From positions 1,760,001-1,824,000 of the forward strand of contig CAVYGN010000002.1 of NCBI GenBank assembly GCA_963768055.1: a DNA stretch of 64,000 nucleotides. The letters run 5' to 3'. Position 1 is the first letter of the stretch, and each line of letters begins with the position of its first letter. Position numbers and translations under genes: made by a program. Below the pieces are notes generated by a model, which did not search any database, was not told the DNA's origin, and was given only the letters and a program-made list of their open reading frames with translations. This document shows positions 18,252 to 60,484 of the stretch, in pieces. Source of the stretch: an uncultured Spirochaetota bacterium (GTDB lineage: Bacteria > Spirochaetota > Brevinematia > Brevinematales > JAOACQ01).

Positions 18252-20462
18252 ATGAAACAAATTCTTCAGGCATCTTTAATTTTGTTTTTGGTTTTTTTTA
18301 TACCTCATATAATTTTCGGGGACGCGGCGGATGAGTTTTTCGATGCAATCGCGGTCAATGACCTGCCGTCAGTTATAAACTATCTGCAGGCCGGCGGGGA
18401 CCCCAATGTGAGGGATGAATACGGCACTACTCCGTTAATGCTTGCGGCTAAGACAGGTAATTACGACGCGGCCTGCCTGATCCTCCATGACTTTTCCTCG
18501 CCGGGGGTTGTTGCTTTAAAGAGATATGACCAGGTAAAGGCGTATCTTAAGTCGATAGAAAGGGGGCCTAAGTCTGATGTAAACATCAGGAATAATGACG
18601 GTATGACCGCCTTGATGGCTGCCGCTTTAAGCGGGAACCTCCAGATGGTAAGCCTTATTGTAAAAGCGAAGGCCGATATAAACGCTACCAATAACGACGG
18701 AATAACGGCCCTGATGGGCGCCGCGATTACCGGGGACCCCGATATTGTAAAGCTTCTGATCGAAAAGAGAGCCGGGGTGAATATCAAGAACAGGGACGGT
18801 TACACGGCCTTAATATTGGCAGCCGAGAACGACAGGTCCGACTTTGTCAGATTAGAGGTAAAGACAATAAAAGAGGCGAAAATAAAGCAGGACCTTGAAA
18901 AAGTCGCATTGATCCATGCCGCGCACAACAGGCATTCTGATGTAATAAAGATCCTGATCGAAGCAAAGGCCGACATCAACGCCAGGGATAAAAAGAACGA
19001 GACTGTATTGATGAAGGCCGCCCGGGACGGCCATGCCGATATAGTAAAACTTCTTGTCGATAACGGCGCCAATGTAAACGCGAAAGACGACGGGGGCGGA
19101 ACAGCCTTCATGGGCGCAGCCGAAAGCGGACAACCCGAAGCAGTGCGGATCCTCCTTGAAGCTAAAGCCGATGTAAATGCCAAAGATAAAACAGGAAAGA
19201 CAGCCTTAAACAGGGCGGCTGAAAAGGGTCAGTCCGATATCGTCAGGATGCTTCTTCTCGGCAAAGCCGATATAAATCTTAAAAATAATGAAGGCATGAC
19301 GCCGCTTATGCTTTCGGTTTCAAACGGGCGGACGGAAGCCGCCAAAACCCTTCTTGAATCAAAAGCCGATTGCAACGCAAGGGATAACGGGGGCTCGACC
19401 GCCCTGATACTTGCCGCATACTTCGGCAGGGCGGATATGGCAAAACTCTTGATAGATTCCGGCGCCGATATCAACAGGAAAAACAACGACGGGACGACAG
19501 CCCTGATGATTGCTGCCTCAAAGGGTTACGCCGACATCTTAAAACTCCTTATTAGCGCCGGCGGCGATTTTAATGCCAGGGACAACGACGGCATTTCGGC
19601 TTCAACAGCAGCGGCGTCTAAAGGCGACACCGAGATACTCAAGATCCTTGCCGGTTCCGGGGCGAATATAAACTCAGCCGACAGCGACGGTATGACCGCA
19701 TTAATGGCCGCGGCGTTGAAGGGAAATACCGACATTATGAAAATAATTATAGACGCGGGGGCCGACGTAAATGCCAGGGATAAAAAAGGCATGACAGCGC
19801 TGATAGGGGCGGCATACAAGGGGAAAACCGAGGCCGTTAAAATGCTTTTGGACTATAAAGCGAAGGTAAACATAAAGACGATTCAGGGATCTACCGCCCT
19901 TCTTGGAGCTGCTCAAGGCAATGAAAGCGACACGGTCAAGATTCTTATCGATTCCGGGGCGGATGTGAATCTGCAGGACAATGACGGAACGACCCCGCTG
20001 ATGGATGCGGCTTCAGGAGGAAATGAAGAAGTGATAAAGCGCCTTATCGACGCGAAAGCGGATGTGAACGCAAGCGACAAGTTCGGGCAAACCGCATTGA
20101 TCGAAGCGGTAAGGAATAATCATGACGGGGCCGTCAGGATCCTTATCGAGGCTAAAGCCGATGTAAACGCCAGGGACAGCGATAATCAGAGTTCTCTGAT
20201 GCATGCAGCATATAACGGTAACGAGGATATAGTAAAAATCCTTATAGATTCAAAAGCCGACGTAAATTCTAAGGACGTAGACGGCCAGACTGCCCTGATG
20301 CTTGCGGCCTATCAGGGGCGCGGAGAAGTCATAAAGATTTTGATCGATTCAAAGGCGGACGTTAACGCCAGGGACATGCATGGCCAGTCGGCTTTGATGT
20401 TTGCTCTGAATAAACAGAACAGCGAAATAATTAATTTATTGAAAGAAGCCGGAGCTAAATAA
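18252..20462 (+). CDS. Secreted ankyrin-repeat protein (about 20 repeats)
   Basis: Signal-like N-terminus; tandem 33-aa G-x-TALMxAA...LIxAxADVN repeats. Confidence 0.95.
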   Translation: MKQILQASLILFLVFFIPHIIFGDAADEFFDAIAVNDLPSVINYLQAGGDPNVRDEYGTTPLMLAAKTGNYDAACLILHDFSSPGVVALKRYDQVKAYLKSIERGPKSDVNIRNNDGMTALMAAALSGNLQMVSLIVKAKADINATNNDGITALMGAAITGDPDIVKLLIEKRAGVNIKNRDGYTALILAAENDRSDFVRLEVKTIKEAKIKQDLEKVALIHAAHNRHSDVIKILIEAKADINARDKKNETVLMKAARDGHADIVKLLVDNGANVNAKDDGGGTAFMGAAESGQPEAVRILLEAKADVNAKDKTGKTALNRAAEKGQSDIVRMLLLGKADINLKNNEGMTPLMLSVSNGRTEAAKTLLESKADCNARDNGGSTALILAAYFGRADMAKLLIDSGADINRKNNDGTTALMIAASKGYADILKLLISAGGDFNARDNDGISASTAAASKGDTEILKILAGSGANINSADSDGMTALMAAALKGNTDIMKIIIDAGADVNARDKKGMTALIGAAYKGKTEAVKMLLDYKAKVNIKTIQGSTALLGAAQGNESDTVKILIDSGADVNLQDNDGTTPLMDAASGGNEEVIKRLIDAKADVNASDKFGQTALIEAVRNNHDGAVRILIEAKADVNARDSDNQSSLMHAAYNGNEDIVKILIDSKADVNSKDVDGQTALMLAAYQGRGEVIKILIDSKADVNARDMHGQSALMFALNKQNSEIINLLKEAGAK

Positions 20463-20475
20463 AGGGGGACCGTTT

Positions 20476-23439
20476 ATGATGACAGTGATAAAATGCGTGC
20501 CGTATATTTGTTCATTTATCATACATGCAATGTTATTCGCCCTGCTTTATAATTCTTTTACAGGCGGAATTGGGCGGGAACAAAGCGGTAATGACATTAA
20601 GATCAGCAGGAAAGAAGCAGGGATGTTTAAACAAATATCACAGCCTAACAGTGCTTGTAGCGACGAACAAAAGAACAAAATTGAAAACGAATATAATAAA
20701 AAATACAGGGATGCTTACAGCAAAATAAACGATATAATGAAAGAAAACGGATCCAATACTAATTTCCGCATCGATGACTTTGTCAACGATATCAATAAAA
20801 GCCAGAAAACGATCGACTCGCAGTTCTCGGAATATACCAGGAAAATGATAGATGAAGATATTACGAACGGCATTTTGAAAAATACTTCAGAATATATAAA
20901 GAAAATGATAAACGAAGATATAAAAAGGGATTTAATGGCTTTGAAAGATAAAAGTAAAAACAACAAAAATTCCGACCGCTCTAAATCATTCAGGGAGCTT
21001 GCCGAAATCAACAGGGAGGCCGTCAATGCAACATTGAAAAAGTTTGACGAGTCCCTTTTGAATAAATACAAAGAAAAACTCGAAGCCGATATAAAGCAAA
21101 AATATTCCGGGATATCCCTTTTACCTGAAAACAGGAAAGAATTGAAAAAAATTATCGATGAAAGCGCCGAATACTTAAAATCGAAAATGTTAAAGGAAGT
21201 CGCGAAACTGGATATTTTTAAGGAAGAATTAAAAAACAACAATGAAAATAACATCCCCGATCTTAATACAAAAATCGGGAATGATATTGCAATTGAAAAT
21301 AATACGATTAATAAATTGGAAAAAATGATGGACCGCCTTGTGGAAAAAAGCGATGAACTTGATTCGAATCCGGATGGCAAGAATCTTGATGATTATAAAA
21401 AAGAATTGTCGGATATAAGAAATGAAATTAAAGGACAGCTGGGTGAGCTCCTGGATAAGGCTGATTCCCTTAGTTTAAAGGAAACCGCTCAAAGCATGAT
21501 GTCTGAAATAGATAAAAACGAGTTTAAAACTGCAAACAAGGACCAGTTGAAAGATGCATATAAAAAAAGTTTAGACGAAACAGTTGAAAATATTTCAATT
21601 CTTAATTTTATAGCCTCTCATTACAGCGATCAACCGGCCGCCTGGGAAGGGGTTTCAAACAATGATAGAAATCCGAAGCATGAAAATAATTTAAAAGATA
21701 AAACCGTGCTGGATAATAATCTTAAAAATAAGATCGATAAATCGGCTGAAATATCTGTCGATATAATCTCGAATTCCATTGAAAAAGAGATGAAAAAAAA
21801 TGTAAGTACTTACAACGCCCAATTCAGTTTAGATCAAGTTGAAAACAGCAGGACTTATGCTTTCGGGATTCACCCGGGGGATTATTATAAGGATGAAGAT
21901 TCAGTACGGAAAGACGATTCAAAGCCGGTAAATCAGACGATTGAAAACGGGACTCCGGGAGCATCCGGGTCTCCCATTTATGCCGACCTCAACAGGAAAG
22001 TAGAAAAATATGGGGATGGGGGCGGATTTAAAGAAATCGGTTTAGGGCCCGGGCACAATGACAAAAGGGAAGGCGATGAAAGGTTTACGAGAAAATTCAC
22101 TGCTGCTGATACCGGGATGGGTTTCAGGGTCAGGGACCTTATAGAATTCATGAAAAAATTCGGTAGCAGGTCCAGGGCATTAAATTTAAATTTCGAGTAT
22201 TCAGCGGCCCGTGGAGAAGCCACGGAGGCAACGCCGGTATCGTACAGCTACCCTAAATATGTATATATATCCGAAGAACAGAAATCGCAGATCGAAGAAT
22301 TAATGAAAAATAATGAGGATGAAAATAATAAAAAAGAAATGAGTTTATACAGCAGCTTCCCGGCTTACGCCCGTATCCCATATCAGCCCCATGAATTAAA
22401 GATCGACGGTGACCTCTCGGAGTGGGGCGAGCTCGATAACCCGGTACAGATGCAGTATGCTTCGGACAACGGCCATGATAAACTGACAAACGGCGTAAAA
22501 TTGTACATGCGCTGGAACGAATCCGGATTTTATTTTGCCTATAAGTCGGACAATACGAACAGGATAAATTTGCCCGACGAGATAGAAGACGATTATGACA
22601 GGGCGACCTATGACGTGACCCAGGACAAATGCGACGGCGACACGTTCGAATTCTGGATCGACCAGGCGGATAACCAGGAGCCGACTGCCTGGGAAAGCAC
22701 CTTTATAAGGCTTTTTACGTTCAGCCCCTTTGCCGCTCCCGGCCTTTATATCGATTATTTCCGCCAGTATGAGCATAGGCAGATAGAGGATAATTATCAT
22801 GTAAGGATCACGAACAGGCAGACTCCTACGGGTTATATAGTCGAGGCTTTTTTAAGCAAGGATGTCCTTCCGAAAAATGTGGCCCTTCATCCTAAAAAGC
22901 AGTTTGTATGCAACTTTTCAATAAACCAGGGATCAGATTGGGGCCCGTATTCGTCCCAGTGGTCTGCATCCAGGGCTATCGACAGCAGGGTCAGGCCTAA
23001 TACCTGGGGATGCATTGAGCTGATGGGTTATAAGCCTGAAATCGAGGTAAAGGATTATAACCAGGAGGGCCCTGGGGGGAAGGGGTCTGAATTTATATTC
23101 CCGGGCCAGGCTGTGAAAATTTATATAAAGGACCCTGAAAGGATATTCGATTCGAGCAGCCGCGAGATGATCCCCGCATATGTCGGGATCATAGGAAACG
23201 ATAATAAAAAAAAGATCAATCTTATTGAAACGGAGAAAGGTTCGGGTCTCTTTTATGCAAGCATAAATACAAAATCCTTTGAAAACTCGACAATGGCAGA
23301 CGCACTCCTTGTTAGGCCCGGCGATATTTTATTTGTAGAATACAGAAAATACAATGAATCTTCCACTGACGAGGCTTTCAATCAGAAATATTTCCTGTAC
23401 CTTCCGGTAGTAAATTCGTTTTATTCGACAATGAAATAA
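20476..23439 (+). CDS. 987-aa membrane-anchored protein: TonB/TolA-type TM anchor, long helical region, CBM9-like domain
   Basis: N-terminal TM containing SFIIH (SxxxH); K/E/N-rich helical region to about aa 440; KIDGDLSEW..LYMRWNESGFYFA..GDTFEFWID..GYIVEAFL (CBM9/DOMON-like); directly upstream of exbB/exbD. Confidence 0.6.
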   Translation: MMTVIKCVPYICSFIIHAMLFALLYNSFTGGIGREQSGNDIKISRKEAGMFKQISQPNSACSDEQKNKIENEYNKKYRDAYSKINDIMKENGSNTNFRIDDFVNDINKSQKTIDSQFSEYTRKMIDEDITNGILKNTSEYIKKMINEDIKRDLMALKDKSKNNKNSDRSKSFRELAEINREAVNATLKKFDESLLNKYKEKLEADIKQKYSGISLLPENRKELKKIIDESAEYLKSKMLKEVAKLDIFKEELKNNNENNIPDLNTKIGNDIAIENNTINKLEKMMDRLVEKSDELDSNPDGKNLDDYKKELSDIRNEIKGQLGELLDKADSLSLKETAQSMMSEIDKNEFKTANKDQLKDAYKKSLDETVENISILNFIASHYSDQPAAWEGVSNNDRNPKHENNLKDKTVLDNNLKNKIDKSAEISVDIISNSIEKEMKKNVSTYNAQFSLDQVENSRTYAFGIHPGDYYKDEDSVRKDDSKPVNQTIENGTPGASGSPIYADLNRKVEKYGDGGGFKEIGLGPGHNDKREGDERFTRKFTAADTGMGFRVRDLIEFMKKFGSRSRALNLNFEYSAARGEATEATPVSYSYPKYVYISEEQKSQIEELMKNNEDENNKKEMSLYSSFPAYARIPYQPHELKIDGDLSEWGELDNPVQMQYASDNGHDKLTNGVKLYMRWNESGFYFAYKSDNTNRINLPDEIEDDYDRATYDVTQDKCDGDTFEFWIDQADNQEPTAWESTFIRLFTFSPFAAPGLYIDYFRQYEHRQIEDNYHVRITNRQTPTGYIVEAFLSKDVLPKNVALHPKKQFVCNFSINQGSDWGPYSSQWSASRAIDSRVRPNTWGCIELMGYKPEIEVKDYNQEGPGGKGSEFIFPGQAVKIYIKDPERIFDSSSREMIPAYVGIIGNDNKKKINLIETEKGSGLFYASINTKSFENSTMADALLVRPGDILFVEYRKYNESSTDEAFNQKYFLYLPVVNSFYSTMK

Positions 23440-23471
23440 AGGGCCGAAAGGTCCTGTAAAGGAGGAATTAT

Positions 23472-24107
23472 ATGAGCTATACCGAGATTTATTCGCCTGT
23501 TCTATACCCCATGTGGCTGATGTCGTTTATTCTGGTGGCTCTTGTTATCGACAGGCTCTGGTTCCTGAGGAAAAGAAGTATTTTCGACAAAAATATGATC
23601 AAAGACGTCCAGAAGCATGCGTTGCTTCTTGAGTTCGATAAGGCCCGGGAAAGGGCTGAAAGTTCCAAAAGCTTGCTGGGAAAGGCATGGAGCAAGGGCT
23701 TTCGGGAGTTTCTTAGCGGAGGGACAAATCTTATGGACGCTCTTTCCGAATCTACTTATTTAATGATGTCTCCTCTAAAAAGAAACATTACCGCGATCGG
23801 CACAGTTGCTTCGATAGCCCCTCTGTTCGGACTCCTCGGTACCCTCATCGGGCTCATAATAATCTTTTCACAGCTTGGGGGAGCCGGGGCCGATGAAAAA
23901 AAGCAGCTTGCCGTCGGAATAGGTCATGCCCTCTATTCTACTATCGGCGGACTTGCCGTAGCTATACCGGGAATAATATTTTACCGTTATTTTAAATCGA
24001 AGCTTTCCAGGTATTCGGAAAACGCGGAATACGAGATCGACCTGATCAAGCATAACTATATGATTTCAAAAAATATTAAAGCCGCTAAGTCAGAACAGGA
24101 AGGATAA
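23472..24107 (+). CDS. exbB: MotA/TolQ/ExbB proton channel protein
   Basis: APLFGLLGTLIG and ALYSTIGGLAVAIP; AGGAGG RBS. Confidence 0.92.
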   Translation: MSYTEIYSPVLYPMWLMSFILVALVIDRLWFLRKRSIFDKNMIKDVQKHALLLEFDKARERAESSKSLLGKAWSKGFREFLSGGTNLMDALSESTYLMMSPLKRNITAIGTVASIAPLFGLLGTLIGLIIIFSQLGGAGADEKKQLAVGIGHALYSTIGGLAVAIPGIIFYRYFKSKLSRYSENAEYEIDLIKHNYMISKNIKAAKSEQEG

Positions 24108-24111
24108 AGGT

Positions 24112-24552
24112 ATGAGAAGGATCATTAGTTTTGACGATGATGAAGAATTATTGAATCTCATCCCCCTTATAGACTGCCTGTTTATTCTGATTATATTCCT
24201 TGTAACCGCGCTGACTTTTAAAGAGCAGATATTCAAACCCGATGAAAAGAAAATGTACGGCATAGAACTGCCTCAATCAAAAAAGAATGAAACCATAAAT
24301 GTTGACGATCCCCTCATTATCTATGTCAAGTCGAACGGCGATTATTTTATCGAAGAAAAAAAATACGATGAGGATTCCATCGACGCCTTTTTCACGCTGA
24401 AGGGAAAAAGTGAAAACAAGGTCGTTATATATGGGGATAAAAAATGCCCGTATGAAAAGATCGTCTATCTAACCGAAATTGCGAGATCTCATGGGATCAA
24501 TTACATAGCCTTTTATGTTATGGAGAAAACGGCCCAGGAAGCTGTAAATTGA
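24112..24552 (+). CDS. exbD: ExbD/TolR family protein
   Basis: NLIPLIDCLFILIIF (conserved TM Asp), IELP, VVIYGDK. Confidence 0.92.
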   Translation: MRRIISFDDDEELLNLIPLIDCLFILIIFLVTALTFKEQIFKPDEKKMYGIELPQSKKNETINVDDPLIIYVKSNGDYFIEEKKYDEDSIDAFFTLKGKSENKVVIYGDKKCPYEKIVYLTEIARSHGINYIAFYVMEKTAQEAVN

Positions 24553-25469
24553 ATTGCGGGCCGGCGGTATGTTTTGACGACGTATCGTGCAAAATCTCCA
24601 GGAATACCGTGCTCAGCCATATAAATCTCAATATTAGTTATGGCAGCATTCAAGGCATTCTGGGCCCGAACGGCGCCGGTAAAACAACCCTTCTATCTAT
24701 AGTACTGGGCTTAAGGCGCCATACCGGAGGAAGAGCAACCGTATTGGGTGAAAAACTGCCCGGGGGAGGAAACGGTTTACTGAGGCGGATTGGAGCGGTT
24801 CTTCAGGAAACCGCTCTCTATGAAGAACTGACAGCCTATGAGAACCTTCTTTTTTCCGCTTCTCTTTACGGAATTTCCAATCCTAAAAAGAGAATTTTAG
24901 AGGTCCAGGAACTTCTTGGACTTTCTGATTGGTCCGGTAAAACCGTAAACGCTCTTTCCGGAGGCATCCGGCGCAGAGTCGCCATAGCCAGGTCGCTTCT
25001 GCATAAACCCGATTTGCTAGTGATTGATGAACCTACGCTGGGTGTAGACGCCGAAGCAAGGCATGACATCTGGTCTCATTTGAGACTGTTAAGAAAAGAG
25101 GGAACAACGATACTGGCGGCCACAAATTATATCGATGAAGCCCTGGCAATATGCGATATAGTTTCGGTCATAAGGTCGGGCTCTCTTATTGTTACTGAAA
25201 AACCCGGAATATTAATCGAACGTGCAGGGCGTTGCCTTGATATAGAATGTAAAGCGGAGAATTCCGCGGAAATAATGTCATTGCTTGAAAAAACCGAAGG
25301 GATTGTTCGGATGGAAAAGACGCCTATCGGTTTGACGATATTTATGAACGGCATTTCAAAGCCGGAAAAGCTTATCATGGATGTTATGAATTCAGTTAAA
25401 ATAAACTCCTTTCGAATCAGGCCACCGGATCTTGCTGAGGTTTTCAGCGCGCTGGAAAGCAATTTATGA
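24549..25469 (+). CDS. ABC-2 exporter ATP-binding subunit
   Basis: GPNGAGKT, LSGG, IDEPT; H-loop appears as TN; overlaps the exbD stop. Confidence 0.93.
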   Translation: MNCGPAVCFDDVSCKISRNTVLSHINLNISYGSIQGILGPNGAGKTTLLSIVLGLRRHTGGRATVLGEKLPGGGNGLLRRIGAVLQETALYEELTAYENLLFSASLYGISNPKKRILEVQELLGLSDWSGKTVNALSGGIRRRVAIARSLLHKPDLLVIDEPTLGVDAEARHDIWSHLRLLRKEGTTILAATNYIDEALAICDIVSVIRSGSLIVTEKPGILIERAGRCLDIECKAENSAEIMSLLEKTEGIVRMEKTPIGLTIFMNGISKPEKLIMDVMNSVKINSFRIRPPDLAEVFSALESNL

Positions 25470-26572
25470 AGATTATGTTAAACGCACTTCTTGGCGCCCT
25501 TCGGGCCGAGATTGCTCAAATGGGGCGTTCGAAGCTTCTCCTGGTATTGACCGCCATGCAATCTGTGATTTTTATATTGCTTTTGAGTATCTTCGGACTT
25601 ACCGGGAGCAGGGCCCCTACGGCGGTGGTCGATAAGGACGGCGGAAAGTATTCCGGGGCTTTTATCGATTGCCTGAAAAGGGCCCATAATTCTTTTTCAA
25701 TAAGATTAATGGATGAGAAAACGGCCGAAGCGGAAGTATCACGAGGGGATCTGGTATCGATGATAAAGATACCCCGTGATTTTTCACAAGAGATCGCGTT
25801 GTACAAAAATGTATTTATCGATGTCACTATTGATAATGTCGACGTTGATATGACGGAGGATATTCAGAGGGCGATACCCTCTGCAATAGTTAAATTTTCG
25901 GACACAGTCAAACTTCCCGGGATAAGGGTCAGGGTCAGTGAAGATGATTTAATAGATCATGACACTGATTTTATCCCTTATCTTGCCGTCAGTGCGCTGG
26001 CGCTGGCTGCGTTTGTCGTAGCCGGAATTTTGGGCGCCTCTGCGGTTTCACGCGAATTCGAGGCCGGGACAATAAAACTTCTTAAGTTAGCGCCTGTTCC
26101 GCCGCTTGTAACAATAATCGGCCGTATAATCGCCGCCGGCCTTTACTCTTTAACCGTACTGATTATTAGTGTGGGTGTAATTGTCATAGGGTACGGCATC
26201 AAACCAGCACATCCCGTCGAACTATCATTTGCACTTGTAATCTGCGTTATTATTTTCGGATGCGCAGGCGCAGCTCTGGGAGCTGTTTTCAAACGGACGC
26301 TTACGTCCGCTTCTCTTATTTTCGGGCTTGCTCTTCCGTTTTATATTGACAGCGGAGCTCTGGAACCAGAACGTTTTGACGGCAACGCCATCTGGGCGCT
26401 GGCCCATTTATCGCCGGTTTATTATGCGGTAGGAATTCTGGAACATGCCTTTCATGGTTTCCTGGTGACGCCGGAGTCTGTTTTTGTCGATTTTATCGCT
26501 CTCGGCATATGGGCAATCGTCTTGCTCATTATCACGGCAAAGATCATGAAAAGGAAAATATTATTATGGTAA
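25466..26572 (+). CDS. ABC-2 type permease
   Basis: AVVDKD extracytoplasmic domain, SREFEAGTIKLL, six TMs; ATGA coupling. Confidence 0.88.
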   Translation: MKIMLNALLGALRAEIAQMGRSKLLLVLTAMQSVIFILLLSIFGLTGSRAPTAVVDKDGGKYSGAFIDCLKRAHNSFSIRLMDEKTAEAEVSRGDLVSMIKIPRDFSQEIALYKNVFIDVTIDNVDVDMTEDIQRAIPSAIVKFSDTVKLPGIRVRVSEDDLIDHDTDFIPYLAVSALALAAFVVAGILGASAVSREFEAGTIKLLKLAPVPPLVTIIGRIIAAGLYSLTVLIISVGVIVIGYGIKPAHPVELSFALVICVIIFGCAGAALGAVFKRTLTSASLIFGLALPFYIDSGALEPERFDGNAIWALAHLSPVYYAVGILEHAFHGFLVTPESVFVDFIALGIWAIVLLIITAKIMKRKILLW

Positions 26573-27696
26573 GAGGAATATGGATTATTTCCATTCTTGA
26601 CCTTCGGATCTGGATGAGAATGCCCCTGGCAATAGTCAGCGCCCTTGTTCCTCCATTCGGGATGGTACTTCTCCTGATTGTGTTAGCCCTGTCGGTAGGA
26701 AAACAGCCTGTCGCTCTTGTGGTTTCTTCCAGCGGTCCTTTTGCCCGGAGGATGGCTAAAATTATTGAAAAAGACACCGAGGCTTATCTTCTTGCCGTAA
26801 CGGACACAATAAGCGCGTCAAAAATGCTTGCGGGCCAGGAAGTCGCGGCTGTGATAACGATTCCGCTCGATTTCGATTCCACGCTGGCCAGTGGAAGCGC
26901 AAGGGTCAATCTGAAAATAAACAATATCGATATTGATTTTTCCGATGACATAAGGCGCTCAGTAGACCGTTCTGTCGCTCAGTTTGACGCTCCAGGACTT
27001 GGCTTAGGTGAAAACGAAAATGAAAATGAAAATATAGATATGCCGAATCCTTATCTAATTCATGTCGCTGAAGATAATCTCAGGACAACTAATGTCGATT
27101 TTTTAAGATACCAGGTTATACCCGCCCTGGTGCTCCTCGTCCTAAGCATAGGGCTGACGGGGACAGCTCTTATGTGCGCTCTGGACAGGGAAAGGGGTAC
27201 CGGCCGTTATCTTATTATTGCGCCAGCCTCATCGTGGTCCTTTATTTCAGGAAGGATATTGGGAGGATTATTAGCGGCTATGGCCGTCCTTGTACCTTCG
27301 GTTGCGGTTTGCATCCTGACCGGCATTGTATCTGTTCCTATGGGACACTGGCCGGCCCTGGTCTTTCTTTTTTTAGCGACAGGTCTGTGCTCTTCCGGAT
27401 TGGGAACGCTCGTCGGCAGCCTGTTGAATGGTTCGCGCCTTGCCGCAATGGCATCATCGACAATAGCAACTTTCATGTTCTTCCTTGGCGGCGGGTTTAC
27501 AACGATTGCTTTTCTGCCGAACTGGCTGAGAAATTTAAGCTCATTTATACCTTTCCGTTACTCGATTGAAGGATTGAGGCAGATCCTGTTCTACCCGGGT
27601 CTTGAAGGGGTTGCATTGGACCTGGCTGTACTAGCCGGAAGCGCCCTCCTGTCAGTATTCGCCGGAGCAGTTCTTTTTCGAAGGTCGATTTTTTAA
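26566..27696 (+). CDS. ABC-2 type permease
   Basis: DRERGT motif, FLGGGF..LPNWL..P; ATG 26566 preferred. Confidence 0.88.
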   Translation: MVRGIWIISILDLRIWMRMPLAIVSALVPPFGMVLLLIVLALSVGKQPVALVVSSSGPFARRMAKIIEKDTEAYLLAVTDTISASKMLAGQEVAAVITIPLDFDSTLASGSARVNLKINNIDIDFSDDIRRSVDRSVAQFDAPGLGLGENENENENIDMPNPYLIHVAEDNLRTTNVDFLRYQVIPALVLLVLSIGLTGTALMCALDRERGTGRYLIIAPASSWSFISGRILGGLLAAMAVLVPSVAVCILTGIVSVPMGHWPALVFLFLATGLCSSGLGTLVGSLLNGSRLAAMASSTIATFMFFLGGGFTTIAFLPNWLRNLSSFIPFRYSIEGLRQILFYPGLEGVALDLAVLAGSALLSVFAGAVLFRRSIF

Positions 27697-39536: not shown

Positions 39537-40232
39537 ATGAAAAAGACGTGTATATTTATAGTATTTCTATTAATTCTGGCTGTTTTCAGCTGTTCAAAAA
39601 AAGTAAGTACTGAAAGTTTTTCTGGAAAGATACTTTTGACCGCCGGTAGTGTTTTAGTTAATGACACTCCGGCAAGCGTGGACTCTGATGTCCCGGCGGA
39701 TTCCACCATTACAACCGGAAAGGATTCCATCTGTGAAATCGTTTTTAACGGGAAAAACATCATTCATATACTCGAAAACAGCTCCATAAAACTGAATATG
39801 CTCCAGGAGCAGAAAGGAATAAAAATCAAATCGGGGGGCCTGGAAGCTGTTGTCAAAAACCTCGGCTATGCAAAAGACGGACTGCCCCCTTTTAAAGTCG
39901 AGACGGAGACGGCGGTCGCGGCTGTCCGCGGCACCACCTTTTATGTCAGGGCCATCGATAGTTCAAATACAGTAGTATGCGCCTGCAACGGTGTTGTTGC
40001 GCTGGGGAACCCGGGCCAGACTAATTTAGAGACTGTAGAATCCCGCCATCATACCGGTTTTGTCTTTATTTCAGGTACAAACGGCCTCAGTTTCAGGGAA
40101 GTAAAACTTAAGTATAAAAATGATGCCGAATTGAAAAAGATTGTCGGCCATAACAACAGGGATATGGAGGAACTGGCCGCAAAAATCGGGGTAAAAATCG
40201 ATTGGCGGCATGTCGACAGGGCCGTCCGGTAG
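39537..40232 (+). CDS. FecR-domain lipoprotein
   Basis: Lipobox LAVFS-C; ITTGKDS, ENSSI, VETETAVAAVRGTTF. Confidence 0.85.
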   Translation: MKKTCIFIVFLLILAVFSCSKKVSTESFSGKILLTAGSVLVNDTPASVDSDVPADSTITTGKDSICEIVFNGKNIIHILENSSIKLNMLQEQKGIKIKSGGLEAVVKNLGYAKDGLPPFKVETETAVAAVRGTTFYVRAIDSSNTVVCACNGVVALGNPGQTNLETVESRHHTGFVFISGTNGLSFREVKLKYKNDAELKKIVGHNNRDMEELAAKIGVKIDWRHVDRAVR

Positions 40233-46050: not shown

Positions 46051-46223
46051 GGGCGGTTCCAAAAACTAGATTTTTAAAAAATAATCGTAATAATGAATCT
46101 AATAATTCCGCCCAATAGTGCCCTGGTGCCTGGCCCCAGGACAGGCCACTTGTCCCCGTAAGGGTTTATCCCCGTCAGGGGGGCTACCTTGCTGCCCCAA
46201 GGGGGCAGTTATTAGAAGTGCCC
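46051..46223. mobile_element. MITE-like non-autonomous element (173 bp)
   Basis: Terminal IRs GGGCGGTTCCAAAAACT / AGTTATTAGAAGTGCCC (13/17); TTAA on both flanks (46047-46050, 46224-46227); GC-rich internal hairpins. Confidence 0.6.
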
Positions 46224-46266: not shown

Positions 46267-46293
46267 GTGACATATTTTGAAGTTTCATGTGTT
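46267..46293 (+). promoter_or_regulatory. Putative ECF promoter (autoregulatory)
   Basis: GTGACA-N15-TGTGTT; same layout as 49740-49766. Confidence 0.6.
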
Positions 46294-46313
46294 CAATATA
46301 TTAACAAGAGGTC

Positions 46314-46802
46314 TTGATGCAGAAAACCGACGTCGAGGAATATTATAAAAAGTATGGCCCTATGGTGCTGAGGAGATGCAGGTGGCTTCTCAAAGACGAG
46401 GAAAGGGCGCTTGATGCTATGCAGGATGTGTTTGTTCTTCTACTGAGAAATCTGGACAGGCTTAAAGGCGAATATCCGTCAAGCCTTTTATACAAAATGG
46501 CGACCAATGTCTGCCTGAACCTGATCCGGGACAGCAGGAAAATAGCCGAATCAAGGGATGAGGAAGTTTTGAATTCGATCGCATCGGCCGGCGATCAGTT
46601 TTCCGGGATAGTTGAGAGCGACATATTAAACAGGCTTTTTGACGGCGAGAAAGAATCGACAAGGGCCATTGCCGTATATCACTACATAGACAGGCTGACG
46701 CTGGAGGAAACTGCGAAGGAGACAGGTCTTTCTGTTTCAGGGGTGCGGAAGCGTTTGAAAAGGCTCCGAGAAAAAGCCGACATTCAGGAGAAATTATTAT
46801 GA
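46314..46802 (+). CDS. ECF RNA polymerase sigma factor
   Basis: ALDAMQDVF, LYKMATNVCLN (region 2), LTLEETAKETGLSVSGVRKRL (region 4). Confidence 0.92.
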   Translation: MMQKTDVEEYYKKYGPMVLRRCRWLLKDEERALDAMQDVFVLLLRNLDRLKGEYPSSLLYKMATNVCLNLIRDSRKIAESRDEEVLNSIASAGDQFSGIVESDILNRLFDGEKESTRAIAVYHYIDRLTLEETAKETGLSVSGVRKRLKRLREKADIQEKLL

Positions 46803-47593
46803 AAGAGAATAATATATCGGATCTTAAGCTTGAAAGATATTTTCTAGGCGAATTGCCTTCCCGGGAGCTCAATAAAATAAAGTCCTTATTGGAGACGGAC
46901 CAAGCCCTTTCAGAACGTCTCGATAACCTTAGAAAATCCAACGAGGATATACTAAGCCTTTATAAATCTTCGGAAATAGCGGAGAGGATCCAACGCCGCC
47001 TGAGGGCCTCGGAGGCAGAGGCCTACACCCGGGGAAAATCGGGAAAAAAAGCCGGTATGTTCAGGCGTTATAAATTTTTAATGCCCGCCCTGTCTGCCGC
47101 AGTACTGGCGGCCGTAATGATTCCGATCGTTATTCTGTATATAGGAAATGGGAATGATTACCGTGTCAAGGGGCAGGCTTCCCTCCTGATATACAGGAAA
47201 ACCGCATCCGGCGGAGAACTGCTGAAAAACAGCGATAATGCAAGGAAAGGCGACCTTCTCCAGCTCGGATATACTGCCGGGAGGGAAAGATACGGAGCGA
47301 TATTTTCCATAGACGGCAGAGGCAATCTTACATGGCATTTTCCTTTAAATGTCAGTAACGATACCCGGCTTGAACAGGGGCGAAGGGCATTGCTGCCGGA
47401 ATCTTATGAACTCGATAATGCGCCGGAATTCGAACGCTTCTTTTTTGTTATGTCGGATAAGAAAATAAACCTGAGCGATGTTATCCTTAACGCAGGTATT
47501 CTGGCCGGGGACCCCGGCAGCTCCGGAGTAAAAAGCCTTGAACTTTTTAAGAATTATCAGGTGATTGTAATAACATTATTGAAGAGGGATTAA
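46799..47593 (+). CDS. Putative anti-sigma factor (ActD-like; single TM, DUF4384-like periplasmic domain)
   Basis: ISDLKLERYFLGEL N-terminus, central TM, RVKG motif, GDLLQLGY, FSIDGRG, SYELDNAPEFERFF; ATGA-coupled to the sigma gene. Confidence 0.72.
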   Translation: MKENNISDLKLERYFLGELPSRELNKIKSLLETDQALSERLDNLRKSNEDILSLYKSSEIAERIQRRLRASEAEAYTRGKSGKKAGMFRRYKFLMPALSAAVLAAVMIPIVILYIGNGNDYRVKGQASLLIYRKTASGGELLKNSDNARKGDLLQLGYTAGRERYGAIFSIDGRGNLTWHFPLNVSNDTRLEQGRRALLPESYELDNAPEFERFFFVMSDKKINLSDVILNAGILAGDPGSSGVKSLELFKNYQVIVITLLKRD

Positions 47594-47596
47594 AAG

Positions 47597-49726
47597 ATGA
47601 AAATCCGGATTTGTTTTGCAGTCCTTTTTATAAACATGATTATTTTTATGCATGCTTACAGCTTTCAGGAGAATGGTACGCCCCTGCGGAGGTTCGGCTT
47701 TTTTATTGGTGAGAATGACGGCGGCCATGACCTGGAACCCTTACGCTATGCAGTGCGCGATGCCGAGTCGGTTTCCCGCCTGTTCATGGAAATGGGTGGT
47801 ATAAAACAGCAGGACAATATATTCCTAGTAGAGCCGTCACTGGAAGAAATCCAGGGTAAGCTGAAAACTCTTAAGACGAAGCTTGGATCGCTACGAAGCA
47901 AATATTCCAGGCTGGAGCTGATTTTTTATTATTCAGGCCATTCCGATGAAGAAGGCTTACTGGTCTCGAAAGATAAATTTTCATATAAAGATTTAAAAGA
48001 TGCAATCAGAGACATGCCTGTCGATATGCGTATTGTTATACTGGATTCATGTTCTTCAGGAGCGCTCACAAAGCTTAAGGGAGGAACCAGGCAGCAGGCG
48101 TTTTTAATGGACAATTCGATAAAGATGGAAGGTTATGCGATCATGACCTCAAGCTCTTCAGATGAAGCCTCCCAGGAGTCCGACAGCCTGAAGGGCTCAT
48201 ATTTTACCTATGCTCTGATATCAGGACTCAGGGGGGCTGCCGATACGGGGGGAAATAAAACGGTTACCCTTAATCAGGCCTATCAGTATGCTTACAGGGA
48301 GACCCTTGCGAAAACGGAAAAAACTCTCGGGGGGGCCCAGCACCCGAGCTACGATATACGTATGAACGGTTCCGGAGATGTCGTATTGACCGACCTCCGG
48401 CGGACGACAGCCTCTCTGAAACTTGCGCCGGACATTTCCGGCAGGCTTAATATCCGTGATGATTCCGGCATCCTCGTGGCGGAGATAAACAAAGTCGAAG
48501 GCAGCACTGTCGAACTGGGGATGGAACCGGGTCCCTATAAAATCAATGTTGAAATCGGCAGGAAGGACTACCAGGGTGAAATAACGATTAATGAAAACGA
48601 AAGCGCCGTTTTTTCAAAAGATTTACTGGCTGAGGTAAGTACGGAAAAGACAACAATGCGCGGAAATGAAAATTCTGCCGATCAAACGAATAAGCCTTCT
48701 GAAAATTATATTACGATCCCGTTCTCTTTGACCGTTTTACCATTGTTAAATACTACATCAAATAAAACAATCATCAATCTGGAGCTGAATATCGGCGCAG
48801 GGTACTGCGACAGGCTCGAGGGGACAGCTATCGGGTTTGTTAATATCACAGGAGAGAATGCAAAATACCTGGACTTATCCCTGACCAGTTTGACTTTTCA
48901 TGATTTTACCGGATTTGAAGCCTCTCTTCTGGCCTTCACAGGCCATGATTTTAAAGGCGCACAGTTATCGCTGGTTAATATAGTAATGAATGATTTCGAT
49001 TCGTTTCAGTCGGGGCTTGCCAATATAGACGGAAGAGACTTTCATGGCGTTCAATTAGGACTTGTTAATATCGATGGAAATAATTTCAACGGTTTCCAGG
49101 CAGGCCTGGTTAATATTATAGGGAACAGTTTTTCAGGCTTCCAGGCCGGATTGGCTAACCTTGACATTTATTCATTTAACGGCCCGGAGATCGGGCTTCT
49201 TAATATAAATACTGAAGTGAGCGGCTTGCAGCTCGGGCTTATCAACTTTTCCACCGGGCTGAACGGCGAAGCGATAGGGCTGATCAGTGTCGTTTTATCT
49301 AACGGTCAGACGCATCTAGAAGCCTGGGCGGATGAAACGGGATTTTTAAACATAGCCTTGATCAACGGCTCCAGGACAGTTTACAATATTTATACGATAG
49401 GCATCGATACGGCAGGGACATACTGGACATACGGGCTTGGATTGGGTTTACATATACCGGCCGATCCTTTCTATATAAACGTTGAAATTATAGACTCCAG
49501 CGTCAGCCATATCGCCGCATGGGACGGCAATAATACTCTCGGAAGGTTCAGGGTATATGCGGGTTTCAGTATTTTCGAACATCTGTCAGTGATAGCGGGC
49601 GTCTCGCTGAACTACTACAGGAATTGGAATGGAAATTCGGCCTATGTTCCCTCCTTTAATATAAGCAAGAGTTTTGCGGACGGCGGCATATTGTGGCCCG
49701 GAATTTTCGCCGGACTGCAATTTTAA
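47597..49726 (+). CDS. Secreted caspase-family (C14) protease fused to 15-aa surface repeats and a putative beta-barrel
   Basis: Signal peptide; LRYAVRDA; YYSGHS and ILDSCSSG (His/Cys dyad); SYFTYALISGLRGAAD; GxQxGLxN repeats; terminal FAGLQF. Confidence 0.88.
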   Translation: MKIRICFAVLFINMIIFMHAYSFQENGTPLRRFGFFIGENDGGHDLEPLRYAVRDAESVSRLFMEMGGIKQQDNIFLVEPSLEEIQGKLKTLKTKLGSLRSKYSRLELIFYYSGHSDEEGLLVSKDKFSYKDLKDAIRDMPVDMRIVILDSCSSGALTKLKGGTRQQAFLMDNSIKMEGYAIMTSSSSDEASQESDSLKGSYFTYALISGLRGAADTGGNKTVTLNQAYQYAYRETLAKTEKTLGGAQHPSYDIRMNGSGDVVLTDLRRTTASLKLAPDISGRLNIRDDSGILVAEINKVEGSTVELGMEPGPYKINVEIGRKDYQGEITINENESAVFSKDLLAEVSTEKTTMRGNENSADQTNKPSENYITIPFSLTVLPLLNTTSNKTIINLELNIGAGYCDRLEGTAIGFVNITGENAKYLDLSLTSLTFHDFTGFEASLLAFTGHDFKGAQLSLVNIVMNDFDSFQSGLANIDGRDFHGVQLGLVNIDGNNFNGFQAGLVNIIGNSFSGFQAGLANLDIYSFNGPEIGLLNINTEVSGLQLGLINFSTGLNGEAIGLISVVLSNGQTHLEAWADETGFLNIALINGSRTVYNIYTIGIDTAGTYWTYGLGLGLHIPADPFYINVEIIDSSVSHIAAWDGNNTLGRFRVYAGFSIFEHLSVIAGVSLNYYRNWNGNSAYVPSFNISKSFADGGILWPGIFAGLQF

Positions 49727-49739
49727 CATCCCACCAAAA

Positions 49740-49766
49740 GTAACACATTCTCCTCTTTCCCGTGTT
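49740..49766 (+). promoter_or_regulatory. Putative ECF promoter for the caspase-less paralog
   Basis: GTAACA-N15-CGTGTT (AAC/CGT ECF hallmarks), followed by AACAAGA as in the copy upstream of sigma. Confidence 0.65.
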
Positions 49767-49790
49767 TAAATATTATAAACAAGAAGGAGA

Positions 49791-50951
49791 ATGAGTATGA
49801 AACTAATTCAATCGTTAATTGTTGCGGTTTGTCTTTTATCGGCGGGCCTGATGTATGCTGGGGAAGAAAATAACAGCCAGACAAACTACGTCGTTGTTCC
49901 CTTCAGCGTGACGATTTTCCCGATATGGGGAACCGGAATGAAGACTATCGACGATGCCCAGATTAATATCGGCGCCGGTTATTGCGATATGCTCGAGGGC
50001 CTGTCCATGGGCTTTGTCAACATAGTAGGAGAGGATGCAGTGGGCCTCGACTGCTCTCTTGTGGGGATTACAGGCCATAATTTCAACGGCGTGCAGTGCT
50101 CCCTTGTGACTTATACCGGGAATGACTTTTCCGGAGGACAATTCAGCCTGGTGAATATCGTTTCCGGAAATTTCTCGAAGGCGCAGTCAGGGCTGGTTAA
50201 TATTGTTGGAGGGAATTTTGAAGGATTCCAGGCCGGGCTTATGGATATTGTTGCGGGAGATTTTAAAGGCTTCCAGGCAGGCCTTGCAAATGTCAATCTG
50301 GGAAATTTCAACGGTTTCCAGGCAGGACTGGTTAATATTATGGGAGACGGATTTTCGGGTTTTCAGACCGGATTGGCCAATCTTGACATTTCATCTTTTA
50401 ACGGGCCGGAGATCGGACTTTTAAATATTAACATGGAAACGAGCGGCTTCCAGTTCGGGCTTATCAACTTTTCAAAGGGGCTGGACGGCGAAGCTATAGG
50501 GCTCATCAGTATCGTTTTAAGCAATGGACAAACCCATGGGCAGATCTACGTGGATGAAAACGGTTTCGGAAATATAGCGCTGATAAACGGTTCCAGGACA
50601 ATTTATAATATTTATACAGTCGGAATCGATCAAACCGGTACGTACTGGACGTATGGGCTCGGCCTGGGTTTGCATATACCTCTCGATCCTTTTTATATAA
50701 ATATGGAAATTATAGGCTCCAGCGTCAGTCATATTTCGGCATGGGACGGGAACAATACCCTCGGAAGATTCAGGGTTTATGCCGGATTCAGCATATTCGA
50801 ACACCTATCCATGATAGCAGGCCTTTCTCTGAACTACTACAGGAGCTGGAATGGAAATCCTGCGTATGTTTCCCCATTCTATAACTTAACTAAGACTCTT
50901 GCGAACGGCGACACATTATGGCCCGGGATTTTCGCGGGCGTAATGTTTTAA
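49791..50951 (+). CDS. Secreted surface-repeat (LA_2272-like) putative outer-membrane protein; paralog of the caspase C-terminal half
   Basis: Signal peptide, about 12 GFQAGLxN-type repeats, terminal FAGVMF; AAGGAG RBS. Confidence 0.82.
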   Translation: MSMKLIQSLIVAVCLLSAGLMYAGEENNSQTNYVVVPFSVTIFPIWGTGMKTIDDAQINIGAGYCDMLEGLSMGFVNIVGEDAVGLDCSLVGITGHNFNGVQCSLVTYTGNDFSGGQFSLVNIVSGNFSKAQSGLVNIVGGNFEGFQAGLMDIVAGDFKGFQAGLANVNLGNFNGFQAGLVNIMGDGFSGFQTGLANLDISSFNGPEIGLLNINMETSGFQFGLINFSKGLDGEAIGLISIVLSNGQTHGQIYVDENGFGNIALINGSRTIYNIYTVGIDQTGTYWTYGLGLGLHIPLDPFYINMEIIGSSVSHISAWDGNNTLGRFRVYAGFSIFEHLSMIAGLSLNYYRSWNGNPAYVSPFYNLTKTLANGDTLWPGIFAGVMF

Positions 50952-50981
50952 AATAACCTTCTGTATAGCCTCCATTCACAC

Positions 50982-51011
50982 GCCCAGCCCCTATAAAAGG
51001 GGCTGGGCTTT
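50982..51011 (+). terminator. Intrinsic terminator
   Basis: Perfect 11-bp stem GCCCAGCCCCT/AGGGGCTGGGC, 5-nt loop, then TTT. Confidence 0.8.
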
Positions 51012-51163
51012 AAATTTTGATGAATCTGCCTCTTCAAGTTAAAATAATAAAGGGATTTTAATTTATATCCGGAAGTAATTATGCAGAGATTCGTTTATAA
51101 GGGTTTTCAATGCGGAACAGCAATCTCCGGGTCCGTATCTCCAAGGGGAAAGAGGGGGCGAAT

Positions 51164-58786: not shown

Positions 58787-60484
58787 TTATTTTTTTATTT
58801 TCTTATAAATTTTAGCATTTTTATCATAAACTGAAAAATATTCCGTTCCCTTATTAATTGTAATATCCTCTTTATCCCCTAAAACAAGAAAACCGCATAT
58901 ATCTAAAGATTCCTGAAAAAGATTCAATACCTTTTTCTGCAGCTCATTATCAAAATAAATCAAAACATTCCTGCAAATGATAAGCTGAAATTCATTAAGG
59001 ATCCCGCTATTGACTATACTGTGCTGGAAGAAAAGGATATTATGCTTGAGATAATCCTTGATTTTTAAATAACCGGTTTTAATCTCGAAGTATTTTTCAA
59101 ATTGATTAGACCCCCCGGATAAAATATAATTGCTTTTAAAAAGATCGAAATTTTGTTTTGAATAAAGGCCGTTTTTAGCCTCTTCGATCACATAAGGGTT
59201 CATATCGGTTGCATAAATTTGCGTTTTATCAAGGATCCCCGATTCGTCAAGAAGTATTGCAAGCGAATAGGCTTCCATTCCTGTCGAACACCCCGCGCTC
59301 CATATTTTAATACGGCTGTAGGAATTTAAATAAGGGAATACTTTATCTTTTAATATCCTGAAGACTTCAGGATTCCTGAAAAAATCGGTTACATTTACCG
59401 TTAAATCCAATAAAAAGTCTTCGAAATGATCAGCATCCGAAAGGACCTCATCCCTTAAACCGCCTAATGTTGAAAGATTTTCCTTGATCATAAAAAGCCG
59501 GATCCTTCGTTTAATACTATCGATGCTGTAATTTTGAAAATCATATCTGTAAATATTAAATATTGATGATAAGAGCTGCCTTACTTCATCGTCATTTAAG
59601 GAAAATTTCTCCAGGTTATCTGATAAGAAAGAAACAATTTGCGGCATCTTAAGCACATAATCAGGATTTTTTGTTTCAATGCAATTCAATGGCAGATCCT
59701 TTGCCACGCATTCCTCAGGATCCTCGACAATAATCGTACTTTCGTTCTCTTTTAAATATCCAAGGGCCTTACAGCCGTCGCTCCCGTAACCGCTTAGTAT
59801 AATTGCCAATAATCCCTCACGGTATTCCGCGGAAAGAGACCTGAACAAGACCTCGATCGAGGGCCTCGCGTAATTAACCGGAGGATCTTTTGAAAGGATT
59901 ATCTTTTTTTCGACGGCCTCCATCTGATATCCCGACGGGGCTATATAAATGGTCTTATTTTTAATCACAGCGCCTTTCCGCGGCGTTGAAACCGAATATT
60001 CAGTTCTTGACTTGATGAGTTTTTCAAGAAGATTGGGGCTGTCTTCCAATACATGCTGTATTATAAATATCGAAATATCGCAAACCGGAAGATTCTCTAC
60101 AATCGTAAAGATTTTTTCCATGCTTTCAGCCGAACCTCCGATTGCGATAGCCCTTATATCTATATTCCCGCTTTTTTTAAGAGATTTTCGCGGTATGCAG
60201 GTATTTGCGATCCCTAACCCGATTAAATATGAACAAAGATACCTGTGAAGGATGAATATTTTAAGCGTCATAGGCGGATTGATATCGCAAAATCCGGCTA
60301 ATATTTCAATTATCTCGGCCGGGAGCATTTTTGCATCGAAAAAAGTGATCTGGACGGAATCTAAGCCTTTCCCGGGATTGCACAGAAGTTTTAAAAGCTC
60401 GGCCCTTTCTTTGTCGCTATCAGTGAATCCTGTAACAGAGATATGAAGGATATTTTTAATAGTATCTTTTTGAACCGCCATCAC
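58787..60484 (-). CDS. CheB methylesterase-CheR methyltransferase fusion
   Basis: AIGGSA, QH, RPSIEVLF, SGYGSDG (CheB); VTDFFRNP, KIWSAGCSTGMEAYS, ICRNVLIYF (CheR). Confidence 0.9.
   Translation of the reverse strand: MMAVQKDTIKNILHISVTGFTDSDKERAELLKLLCNPGKGLDSVQITFFDAKMLPAEIIEILAGFCDINPPMTLKIFILHRYLCSYLIGLGIANTCIPRKSLKKSGNIDIRAIAIGGSAESMEKIFTIVENLPVCDISIFIIQHVLEDSPNLLEKLIKSRTEYSVSTPRKGAVIKNKTIYIAPSGYQMEAVEKKIILSKDPPVNYARPSIEVLFRSLSAEYREGLLAIILSGYGSDGCKALGYLKENESTIIVEDPEECVAKDLPLNCIETKNPDYVLKMPQIVSFLSDNLEKFSLNDDEVRQLLSSIFNIYRYDFQNYSIDSIKRRIRLFMIKENLSTLGGLRDEVLSDADHFEDFLLDLTVNVTDFFRNPEVFRILKDKVFPYLNSYSRIKIWSAGCSTGMEAYSLAILLDESGILDKTQIYATDMNPYVIEEAKNGLYSKQNFDLFKSNYILSGGSNQFEKYFEIKTGYLKIKDYLKHNILFFQHSIVNSGILNEFQLIICRNVLIYFDNELQKKVLNLFQESLDICGFLVLGDKEDITINKGTEYFSVYDKNAKIYKKIKK

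Follow-up and report, generated by a model that had tools for sequence, protein, structure and literature searches.

An extracytoplasmic function sigma factor, an anti-sigma-like protein and an exported caspase in one conserved operon: a candidate variant of proteolytic sigma factor signalling

What is a caspase, apparently exported from the cell, doing in an operon that begins with a sigma factor gene and a putative anti-sigma gene? The question is raised by a four-gene locus in a 64,000 nt stretch of DNA (the window; contig CAVYGN010000002.1, positions 1,760,001 – 1,824,000, assembly GCA_963768055.1) from an uncultured Spirochaetota bacterium of the Brevinematales. All coordinates given here are those of the window. 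The plus strand of this locus encodes an extracytoplasmic function (ECF, group IV) sigma-70 factor, a single-pass anti-sigma-like protein, a secreted C14 caspase on a beta module, and a protease-less sister of that module. The finding is real and widespread, is a candidate variant of proteolytic ECF signalling, and is undescribed as a system: no description of the sigma/anti-sigma/caspase trio was found in the literature on ECF sigma and anti-sigma factors, DUF4384 or bacterial caspases, and the accessible part of the ECF re-classification supplement does not mention a caspase. The reading preferred here, for which the chances appear about even, is that of a self-contained, autoregulated ECF module in which the exported caspase would switch the sigma factor on by cutting the anti-sigma protein.

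The four open reading frames (ORFs), the tight spacing and the terminator that an earlier note on this DNA had reported are all present. The sigma gene (nt 46314 – 46802, 162 aa; alternative ATG start at nt 46317) overlaps the anti-sigma gene (nt 46799 – 47593, 264 aa) by 4 nt, a gap of 3 nt follows before the caspase ORF (nt 47597 – 49726, 709 aa), and a 64 nt spacer leads to the sister ORF (nt 49791 – 50951, 386 aa), which probably starts at the ATG at nt 49797 (384 aa), behind AAGGAG. The unit is closed by an intrinsic terminator-like element on the same strand (nt 50982 – 51018), a strong hairpin with a T tract at nt 50982 – 51008, whose 11 bp stem has 9 G-C pairs and is followed by TTTAAATTTT. 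The locus as delimited in the earlier note starts at nt 46267, which is also where a conserved promoter-like motif, described below, begins.

A survey of one genome per species gave at least 598 matches to the gene pattern, at least 581 of which were confirmed. The best 80 of these confirmed loci were analysed, and every count of related loci given here (individual loci are written L001 and so on) is out of that set. All ORFs of at least 60 aa were compared with the window proteins, and a profile search gave the same counts. A sigma gene was found in 71 of the 80 loci and an anti-sigma gene in 76, mostly directly upstream of the caspase gene and on the same strand; exceptions to the gene order include L009 and a divergent pair in L040. 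Five of the nine missing sigma genes (L001, L010, L024, L055, L077) and three of the four missing anti-sigma genes are accounted for by contig ends. The loci derive from Spirochaetota, Myxococcota, Eiseniibacteriota, Fermentibacteria, Goldiibacteriota, FCPU426, Aminicenantes and others, the closest among those listed being that of a Brevinematales metagenome-assembled genome (63% identity). Culturable carriers of the trio include Breznakiella homolactica and the myxobacterium Vulgatibacter incomptus. The full-length caspase architecture is common: of 8,000 candidates that were scored, 2,553 reach E ≤0.001; many relatives cover 95 – 100% of the query at 35 – 40% identity, and those that are named at all are called only 'caspase family protein'. 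Since any further gene family is shared by 8 of the 80 loci at most, the unit is the trio. The gene order that the earlier note had remarked on is strongly conserved across phyla, and these arrangements show a trio that is co-inherited and, to judge from its layout, co-transcribed.

The sigma factor carries Sigma70_r2 (residues 11 – 76, E 4.5e-11) and r4_2 (residues 117 – 154) domains according to Pfam, and matches TIGR02937 with 75.1 bits (cut-off 42.9); its small size and the presence of regions 2 and 4 only place it in ECF group IV. The 4 nt overlap and the conserved motif upstream are consistent with the co-transcribed cognate anti-sigma factor and autoregulated promoter of ECF systems. 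This motif is bipartite, GTGACA-N16-GTGTT (nt 46267 – 46293, plus strand), and lies 47 nt ahead of the sigma ORF. A second copy, GTAACA-N16-GTGTT (nt 49740 – 49766, plus strand), is found within the 64 nt spacer before the sister gene, and these are exactly the two matches to GTRACA-N16-GTGTT in the window (0.01 expected). When all 5-mer/4-mer word pairs were counted without bias in the regions upstream of 72 sigma genes, with shuffled controls, GTGAC...GTGT(T) was the top pair, present in 23 regions compared with at most 7 in the shuffles. A relaxed form of the motif occurs in 31 of the 72 regions, in several phyla and mostly 20 – 60 nt before the called start.

The exact motif gave 60 matches in 46 of the 80 loci. 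By ORF label, 21 of these stand before sigma genes and 6 before anti-sigma genes, of which four (L033, L050, L064, L073) are over-extended ORFs that cover the sigma gene; the true anti-sigma cases are L060 and L070, two loci without an adjacent sigma gene. Both have the motif at the called anti-sigma ORF or slightly within it; that of L051 is situated deeper in the ORF. Two caspase genes are preceded by the exact motif, in L053 and in L063 (a lone caspase), as are sister genes in L001, L038, L046, L048, L068 and loci of the short type (see below), ExbB genes (L042, L053, L074, L076), TonB-dependent receptor Plug genes (L054, L067) and, in some loci, a DUF2807 gene and a cyclase gene. Position and conservation suggest that the motif is the sigma factor's own target, and the earlier proposal that the sigma factor induces both its own operon and the sister fits the presence of the same promoter-like motif before each. 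This regulatory wiring (the trio, autoinduction and a sigma-dependent sister) is, as far as sequence can tell, well supported. The accessible part of the ECF re-classification supplement (Casas-Pastor) mentions DUF4384 anti-sigma factors under ECF25 and quotes GGAAC / GTC as the ECF25s1/s2 promoter; the GTGACA / GTGTT motif is unlike the one quoted there. As a side observation, ExbB/TolQ-family and TonB-dependent receptor genes that adjoin the trio in other phyla are preceded by the motif as well, a hint of a regulon that reaches energy-coupled functions of the outer membrane.

The second protein has a hydrophobic stretch at about residues 93 – 115, preceded by K/R-rich residues, which predicts a single membrane span and a periplasmic C-terminus. 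Residues 11 – 112 match NF052375 ('antisigma') at E 8.4e-5 (22.7 bits, below the cut-off of 100), and the predicted periplasmic domain is DUF4384-like (E 1.9e-5; 25.1 bits, just below the Pfam cut-off of 27). An N-terminal helix region, LERYxLGEL, is conserved among 31 aligned sequences, and residues 1 – 90 contain no H-x3-C-x2-C motif of the zinc-binding anti-sigma (ZAS) type. Compared with PDB sequences the anti-sigma profile found chance-level matches only, and in the ESM Atlas the periplasmic domain fell in with unnamed clusters only and one DUF4384 cluster (0.76). In public records the corresponding protein of two relatives is called 'hypothetical protein' or 'DUF4384 domain-containing protein', and the window's own entry is nameless; 'ActD-like', the label that the earlier note uses for the middle protein of similar trios in other bacteria, was not found as its name, and the ActD lead yielded nothing relevant.

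Regulated intramembrane proteolysis of anti-sigma factors proceeds by a periplasmic site-1 cut and then a site-2 cut (PMC8999054, from its accessible text). The juxtamembrane linker of the anti-sigma-like protein carries the motif R122-V-K124-G125 (nt 47162 – 47173, plus strand). Among the 31 aligned sequences, no residues other than K124 and G125 are invariant in the stretch from the membrane span to the folded domain, with R122 at least 90% conserved; the K-G pair is present in 77 of 77 anti-sigma proteins and the R in 75 of 77, and the linker that precedes them is variable in both length and sequence. An invariant basic motif stands where a site-1 cut would be expected.

Could the third protein make such a cut? 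Its C14 domain (residues ~30 – 270) follows signal-peptide-like residues 1 – 23 and is succeeded by a beta-sandwich (272 – 347), 15-aa repeats (~405 – 560) and a C-terminal beta domain ending in WPGIFAGLQF. Residues 36 – 253 match Peptidase_C14 (PF00656) with 48.6 bits (cut-off 21.4), and Foldseek matches of the predicted structure are to caspases, at E ~1e-3 and target-normalised TM-scores of 0.5 – 0.6. The His/Cys dyad, H115 (nt 47939 – 47941) in SGHS and C152 (nt 48050 – 48052) in DSCS, is intact, as the earlier note had read it; both motifs are invariant across an alignment of 20 relatives, and the dyad is retained in all 81 caspases (80 loci and the window). Profile comparison with Arabidopsis metacaspase-4 gave a match that is weak (E 0.0066) but motif-exact through the alpha1, His and Cys motifs (caspase/metacaspase-4: LRYAvsDA/LRGCVNDV, YSGHS/YSGHG, DSCsSG/DSCHSG), and it keeps both the Asp of the alpha1 motif (D55) and the one located two positions ahead of the Cys (D150). 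These two residues would correspond to Asp95 and Asp211 of TbMCA2. The S1 pocket of TbMCA2 is formed by Cys92, Asp95, Ser156 and Asp211 (accessible part of the review PMC4357240), and orthocaspases cleave after basic residues (PMC6426788, likewise in part). As the acidic S1 residues align with those of metacaspase-4, basic P1 specificity would be expected. With its strictly kept dyad and metacaspase-type acidic S1 residues, the protease looks active.

The loop that follows the catalytic Cys, T158-K-L-K161-G-G (nt 48068 – 48085, plus strand), is also conserved. At 6 – 9 residues after the catalytic Cys, the 81 caspases show T (75), R (74), any residue, K (81), G (81) and G (80). A T-R-hydrophobic-K-G motif is common to the post-Cys loop of the caspase and the juxtamembrane linker of the anti-sigma protein. 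From this resemblance we infer that the loop motif would be a self-processing site, and the anti-sigma motif a substrate site.

The repeats of the caspase protein have a period of 15 aa (a 45 nt tandem repeat in the DNA) and belong to the LA_2272 family, the NF047436 LA_2272_repeat model (cut-off 25) scoring 40.4 bits in the caspase and 34.3 bits in the sister. Both proteins end in Phe, so that the repeats and terminal Phe noticed earlier are borne out; among 75 untruncated relatives, 38 have F in the final position, 12 have L and 9 have I. A predicted N-terminal hydrophobic helix (residues 2 – 22) and the aromatic C-terminus resemble the signal peptide and C-terminal beta-signal of outer-membrane proteins. 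In AlphaFold2 (AF2) models, caspase residues 370 – 709 (predicted local distance difference test, pLDDT, ~90) and the whole sister (mean 86) are antiparallel and all-beta. The top 50 Foldseek matches of the sister model are all outer-membrane barrels, including OmpG, the OprF N-domain, NspA, OmpX, Opa60 and porins, at E 5e-3 to 0.09. The beta-barrel proposed in the earlier note gains weak support from these matches, none of which reaches E ≤0.001; together with the confident all-beta model and the C-terminus they make a barrel plausible.

How the repeats would contribute to such a fold is less easily seen. The repeat profile bears a weak resemblance (E 0.0018) to designed pentapeptide-repeat solenoids, and threading in a 2008 study placed LA2272 in the pertactin beta-helix fold (PMC2387172, accessible text). 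An approximate regular-expression count in 120 proteins gave 4 – 18 repeats, odd in 63 proteins and even in 57, and the caspase and sister differ by a clean indel of one repeat; both observations argue against a closed barrel in which each repeat is one strand. A subset of 15 caspases (L021 – L023, L027, L029, L035, L049, L055, L056, L058, L068, L071, L072, L075, L078) retains the head and beta-sandwich. These proteins (513 – 664 aa when untruncated) have shorter, different C-terminal modules without a Pfam match, which end in GWF, GFHF or FQFGK, and 10 of the 15 loci encode their own protease-less sister of the module.

The beta module of the window's caspase occurs under other heads too. Many matches of the sister are Bacteroidota proteins with an N-terminal STN domain (PF07660) and CarbopepD_reg (PF13715 / PF13620), and an hhalign comparison of the caspase, from the beta-sandwich to the last residue, with STN-headed Bacteroidota proteins extended over 460 columns (Prob 100, E 1.2e-68). 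STN is the periplasmic signalling domain of TonB-dependent transducers, where it contacts FecR-type regulators. By analogy, these STN-headed homologues provide the best indirect evidence that the caspase protein, too, carries a periplasmic signalling device as its head. Such STN-headed proteins include P0133, P0153, P0161, P0205, P0235 and others, and some of the heads score as FecR_C.

The sister protein comprises a signal-peptide-like N-terminus, the repeats and the C-terminal beta domain; it shares 66% identity with residues 361 – 709 of the caspase (E 9e-169), in agreement with its earlier description as a stand-alone copy of the repeat and C-terminal half. Adjoining sisters are found in 15 of the 80 loci as well as in the window, at position +1, +2 or -3, and are 24 – 66% identical to the C-terminus of the cognate caspase; they match the cognate caspase's own module even in the loci with shorter, different C-terminal modules. 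The promoter motif is present at 15 of these 16 sister-bearing loci. A tree built from 25 C-terminal modules does not unite the sisters in one clade, and well-supported branches force at least 4 changes, so the sisters arose or were homogenised repeatedly, which argues for a functional tie of sister to carrier. The sister is optional and not a constant part of the system.

The preferred reading joins these parts as follows. In the resting state the sigma factor would be held by the cytoplasmic N-terminus of the anti-sigma protein, and the caspase head would lie in the periplasm, tethered by the beta-sandwich and repeats to a C-terminal beta domain of outer-membrane type. Activation would perhaps involve self-cleavage of the caspase at its own T-R/K-x-K↓G-G loop, after which the caspase would cut the anti-sigma protein after K124 (or R122) of R-x-K-G, just outside the inner membrane. 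The remaining stub would then be removed by an RseP-type site-2 protease encoded elsewhere, and the freed sigma factor would transcribe the operon from nt 46267 – 46293 and the sister from nt 49740 – 49766. The sister would most likely serve as a feedback partner or competitor of the caspase-bearing carrier. The interpretation in the earlier note is borne out in part, its surface-exposed sensor and surface cue gaining no support.

A broader version of this scheme is somewhat improbable. The carrier, defined for this purpose as beta-sandwich, 14 – 16-aa repeats and C-terminal beta domain, would represent an unrecognised envelope family that signals to ECF anti-sigma factors through exchangeable periplasmic heads and needs no TonB-dependent receptor. 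An STN head would bind, and a caspase head would cut first itself and then the anti-sigma protein at T-R-x-K↓G; the sigma-induced sister, re-evolved repeatedly, would titrate or partner the carrier, to provide gain or shut-off.

Several observations weigh against activation by cleavage. The geometry is awkward, as a head anchored at the outer membrane must reach a site beside the inner membrane, and a Pfam scan of the 46 other window ORFs detected no site-2 protease gene. The resemblance between the caspase and anti-sigma motifs was spotted post hoc, the K-G motifs could be structural and not cleavage sites, and in the AF2 model caspase residues 153 – 270, which include the loop, have a pLDDT <50. 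Three Myxococcaceae loci (L051, L060, L070) carry anti-sigma and caspase genes with no adjacent sigma gene by tblastn and Pfam, L063 has a caspase alone, and 34 of the 80 loci lack the exact motif. The possibility that the caspase beta-sandwich is a copy of DUF4384 was considered and rejected, since hhalign found no similarity between the anti-sigma and caspase proteins (Prob 0.5). No fused or longer anti-sigma-caspase form was present among the 8,000 candidates, which is weak evidence. Two co-folding runs with the caspase head (residues 24 – 360) and the periplasmic part of the anti-sigma protein (residues 112 – 264) gave an ipSAE (interaction prediction score from aligned errors) of 0.01, which counts neither way on binding.

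Is the caspase the switch, or what the switch turns on? The sigma/anti-sigma pair might sense envelope stress through DUF4384 and induce the caspase and sister for use on other substrates, for example misfolded envelope proteins, cell-wall proteins or, in self-destruction, the cell itself. Putative sigma-dependent promoters before caspase and sister are what is usual for ECF outputs, the motif before the ExbB and Plug genes suggests an envelope regulon, and L063 has a lone caspase with the motif. This alternative is nevertheless considered unlikely, as it leaves unexplained why this type of anti-sigma protein is tied to a caspase in 76 of the 80 loci, why the T-R-x-K-G motif of the caspase recurs in the anti-sigma linker, and why a homologous carrier has a signalling head (STN).

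More doubtful is a mechanism of binding without cleavage, in the manner of FecA and FecR, where the head or carrier would bind DUF4384 and a conformational change would expose the anti-sigma protein to a general site-1 protease. In variants of this idea, R-x-K-G may be a pseudo-substrate that silences the protease, or the bound head may shield the anti-sigma protein from other proteases. The homology of the carrier with STN-headed proteins is in its favour, as is the precedent that TonB-dependent transducers bind the anti-sigma factor at rest and guard it against proteolysis (PMC11637429, accessible text). Pure binding, however, does not require a dyad kept in 81 of 81 caspases, nor the S1 residues. 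An autotransporter-like surface protease, exported by the C-terminal beta domain and related to the sigma/anti-sigma pair only through regulation of its expression, would suit the N-terminal enzyme, the beta domain ending in Phe and the threading of LA2272 to the pertactin fold, but is very improbable given that the caspase has no Pfam match to an autotransporter beta-domain at E ≤0.1 and so does not class as a type Va autotransporter, that the homologous carrier bears STN, a periplasmic domain, and that the partner domain of the anti-sigma protein is itself periplasmic.

The surroundings of the operon in the window are unrelated to it, consisting of methyltransferases, a GGDEF protein and a glycosidase according to Pfam. 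In PADLOC none of the caspase, anti-sigma and sister proteins matched a defence system, and the Pfam scan of window ORFs gave no defence context or clustered regularly interspaced short palindromic repeats (CRISPR) context. Rfam had 0 matches over the whole window. Upstream of the sigma promoter, the AT-rich spacer contains a GC-rich island of about 100 nt (nt 46110 – 46210) with two CCCCGT(A/C)AGGG-like units, which folds no better than shuffled sequences (z -1.35) and has no Rfam match. Elsewhere in the window, a run of genes on one strand (nt 18252 – 27693) encodes a 736-aa ankyrin-repeat protein, a 987-aa ORF without a Pfam match, ExbB/ExbD and an ABC-2 transporter. A FecR domain is encoded at nt 39537 – 40229 by an isolated ORF of 231 aa that is not flanked by a sigma gene. 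A DDE_Tnp_1_4 transposase gene that looks intact (E 5e-131) is located at nt 2746 – 4080, and a single ORF that combines CheB methylesterase and CheR methyltransferase (nt 58790 – 60484, minus strand) is adjoined by two hybrid histidine kinases.

Bacterial caspase homologues are abundant, and few have a known substrate or trigger. The trio offers a candidate substrate in the form of an operon partner, a candidate cleavage motif and a transcriptional read-out, which makes its function directly testable. If the preferred reading is true, the system would be a periplasmic counterpart of craspase-Csx30-RpoE and would add a new class of site-1 protease to the regulated proteolysis of ECF systems. 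In addition, the sharing of the carrier with STN-headed proteins suggests that envelope signalling proteins include a broader class that has no name so far.

The closest precedents are craspase-Csx30-RpoE, DdvA and FecIRA. In craspase (type III-E Cas7-11 with Csx29, a TPR-CHAT protein), as proposed here, a caspase-fold protease cuts an anti-sigma-like protein and changes the activity of an ECF sigma factor: Csx29 cleaves Csx30, which binds Csx31 and the ECF sigma factor RpoE, and the C-terminal domains of Csx30 include a DUF4384 group (accessible part of bioRxiv 10.1101/2022.08.17.504292). Craspase differs in being cytoplasmic, RNA-triggered, of the CHAT type and CRISPR-linked, whereas the present protease belongs to C14. 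DdvS-DdvA of Myxococcus xanthus likewise couples a periplasmic caspase-fold domain to a single-pass anti-sigma and an ECF sigma factor, and the periplasmic TPR-CHAT domain of DdvA was proposed to self-cleave near the membrane before RseP acts (PMC11506125, in its accessible text). In DdvA, however, the CHAT domain is fused to the anti-sigma factor, has an incomplete active site, and controls a cyclic-oligonucleotide-based anti-phage signalling system (CBASS) and CRISPR, whereas the C14 caspase of the present system is exported as a protein of its own, on a beta carrier.

FecI-FecR-FecA resembles the unit in its gene order of sigma, anti-sigma and exported beta-rich protein and in the homology of the caspase carrier with proteins headed by STN and CarbopepD_reg, and the unit described here appears to be autoinduced. 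Anti-sigma proteolysis belongs to the FecIRA-type pathway as well (PMC11637429 and PMC7186176, accessible parts). The differences are that the three proteins of the trio contain no Plug/TonB-dependent receptor, STN or FecR domain, that the anti-sigma protein has DUF4384, and that the head is a protease. A periplasmic site-1 cut followed by a site-2 cut, as proposed here, is the scheme of RseA-DegS-RseP, with the difference that the proposed site-1 enzyme is an operon-encoded caspase-fold cysteine protease and not a serine protease. Among the proteases themselves, the orthocaspases and metacaspases (C14B) are akin in the YSGHS, DSCxSG and acidic S1 residues that align with metacaspase-4, and the present caspase is distinguished from them by its signal peptide, beta-sandwich, LA_2272-type repeats, C-terminal beta domain and place in a sigma/anti-sigma operon.

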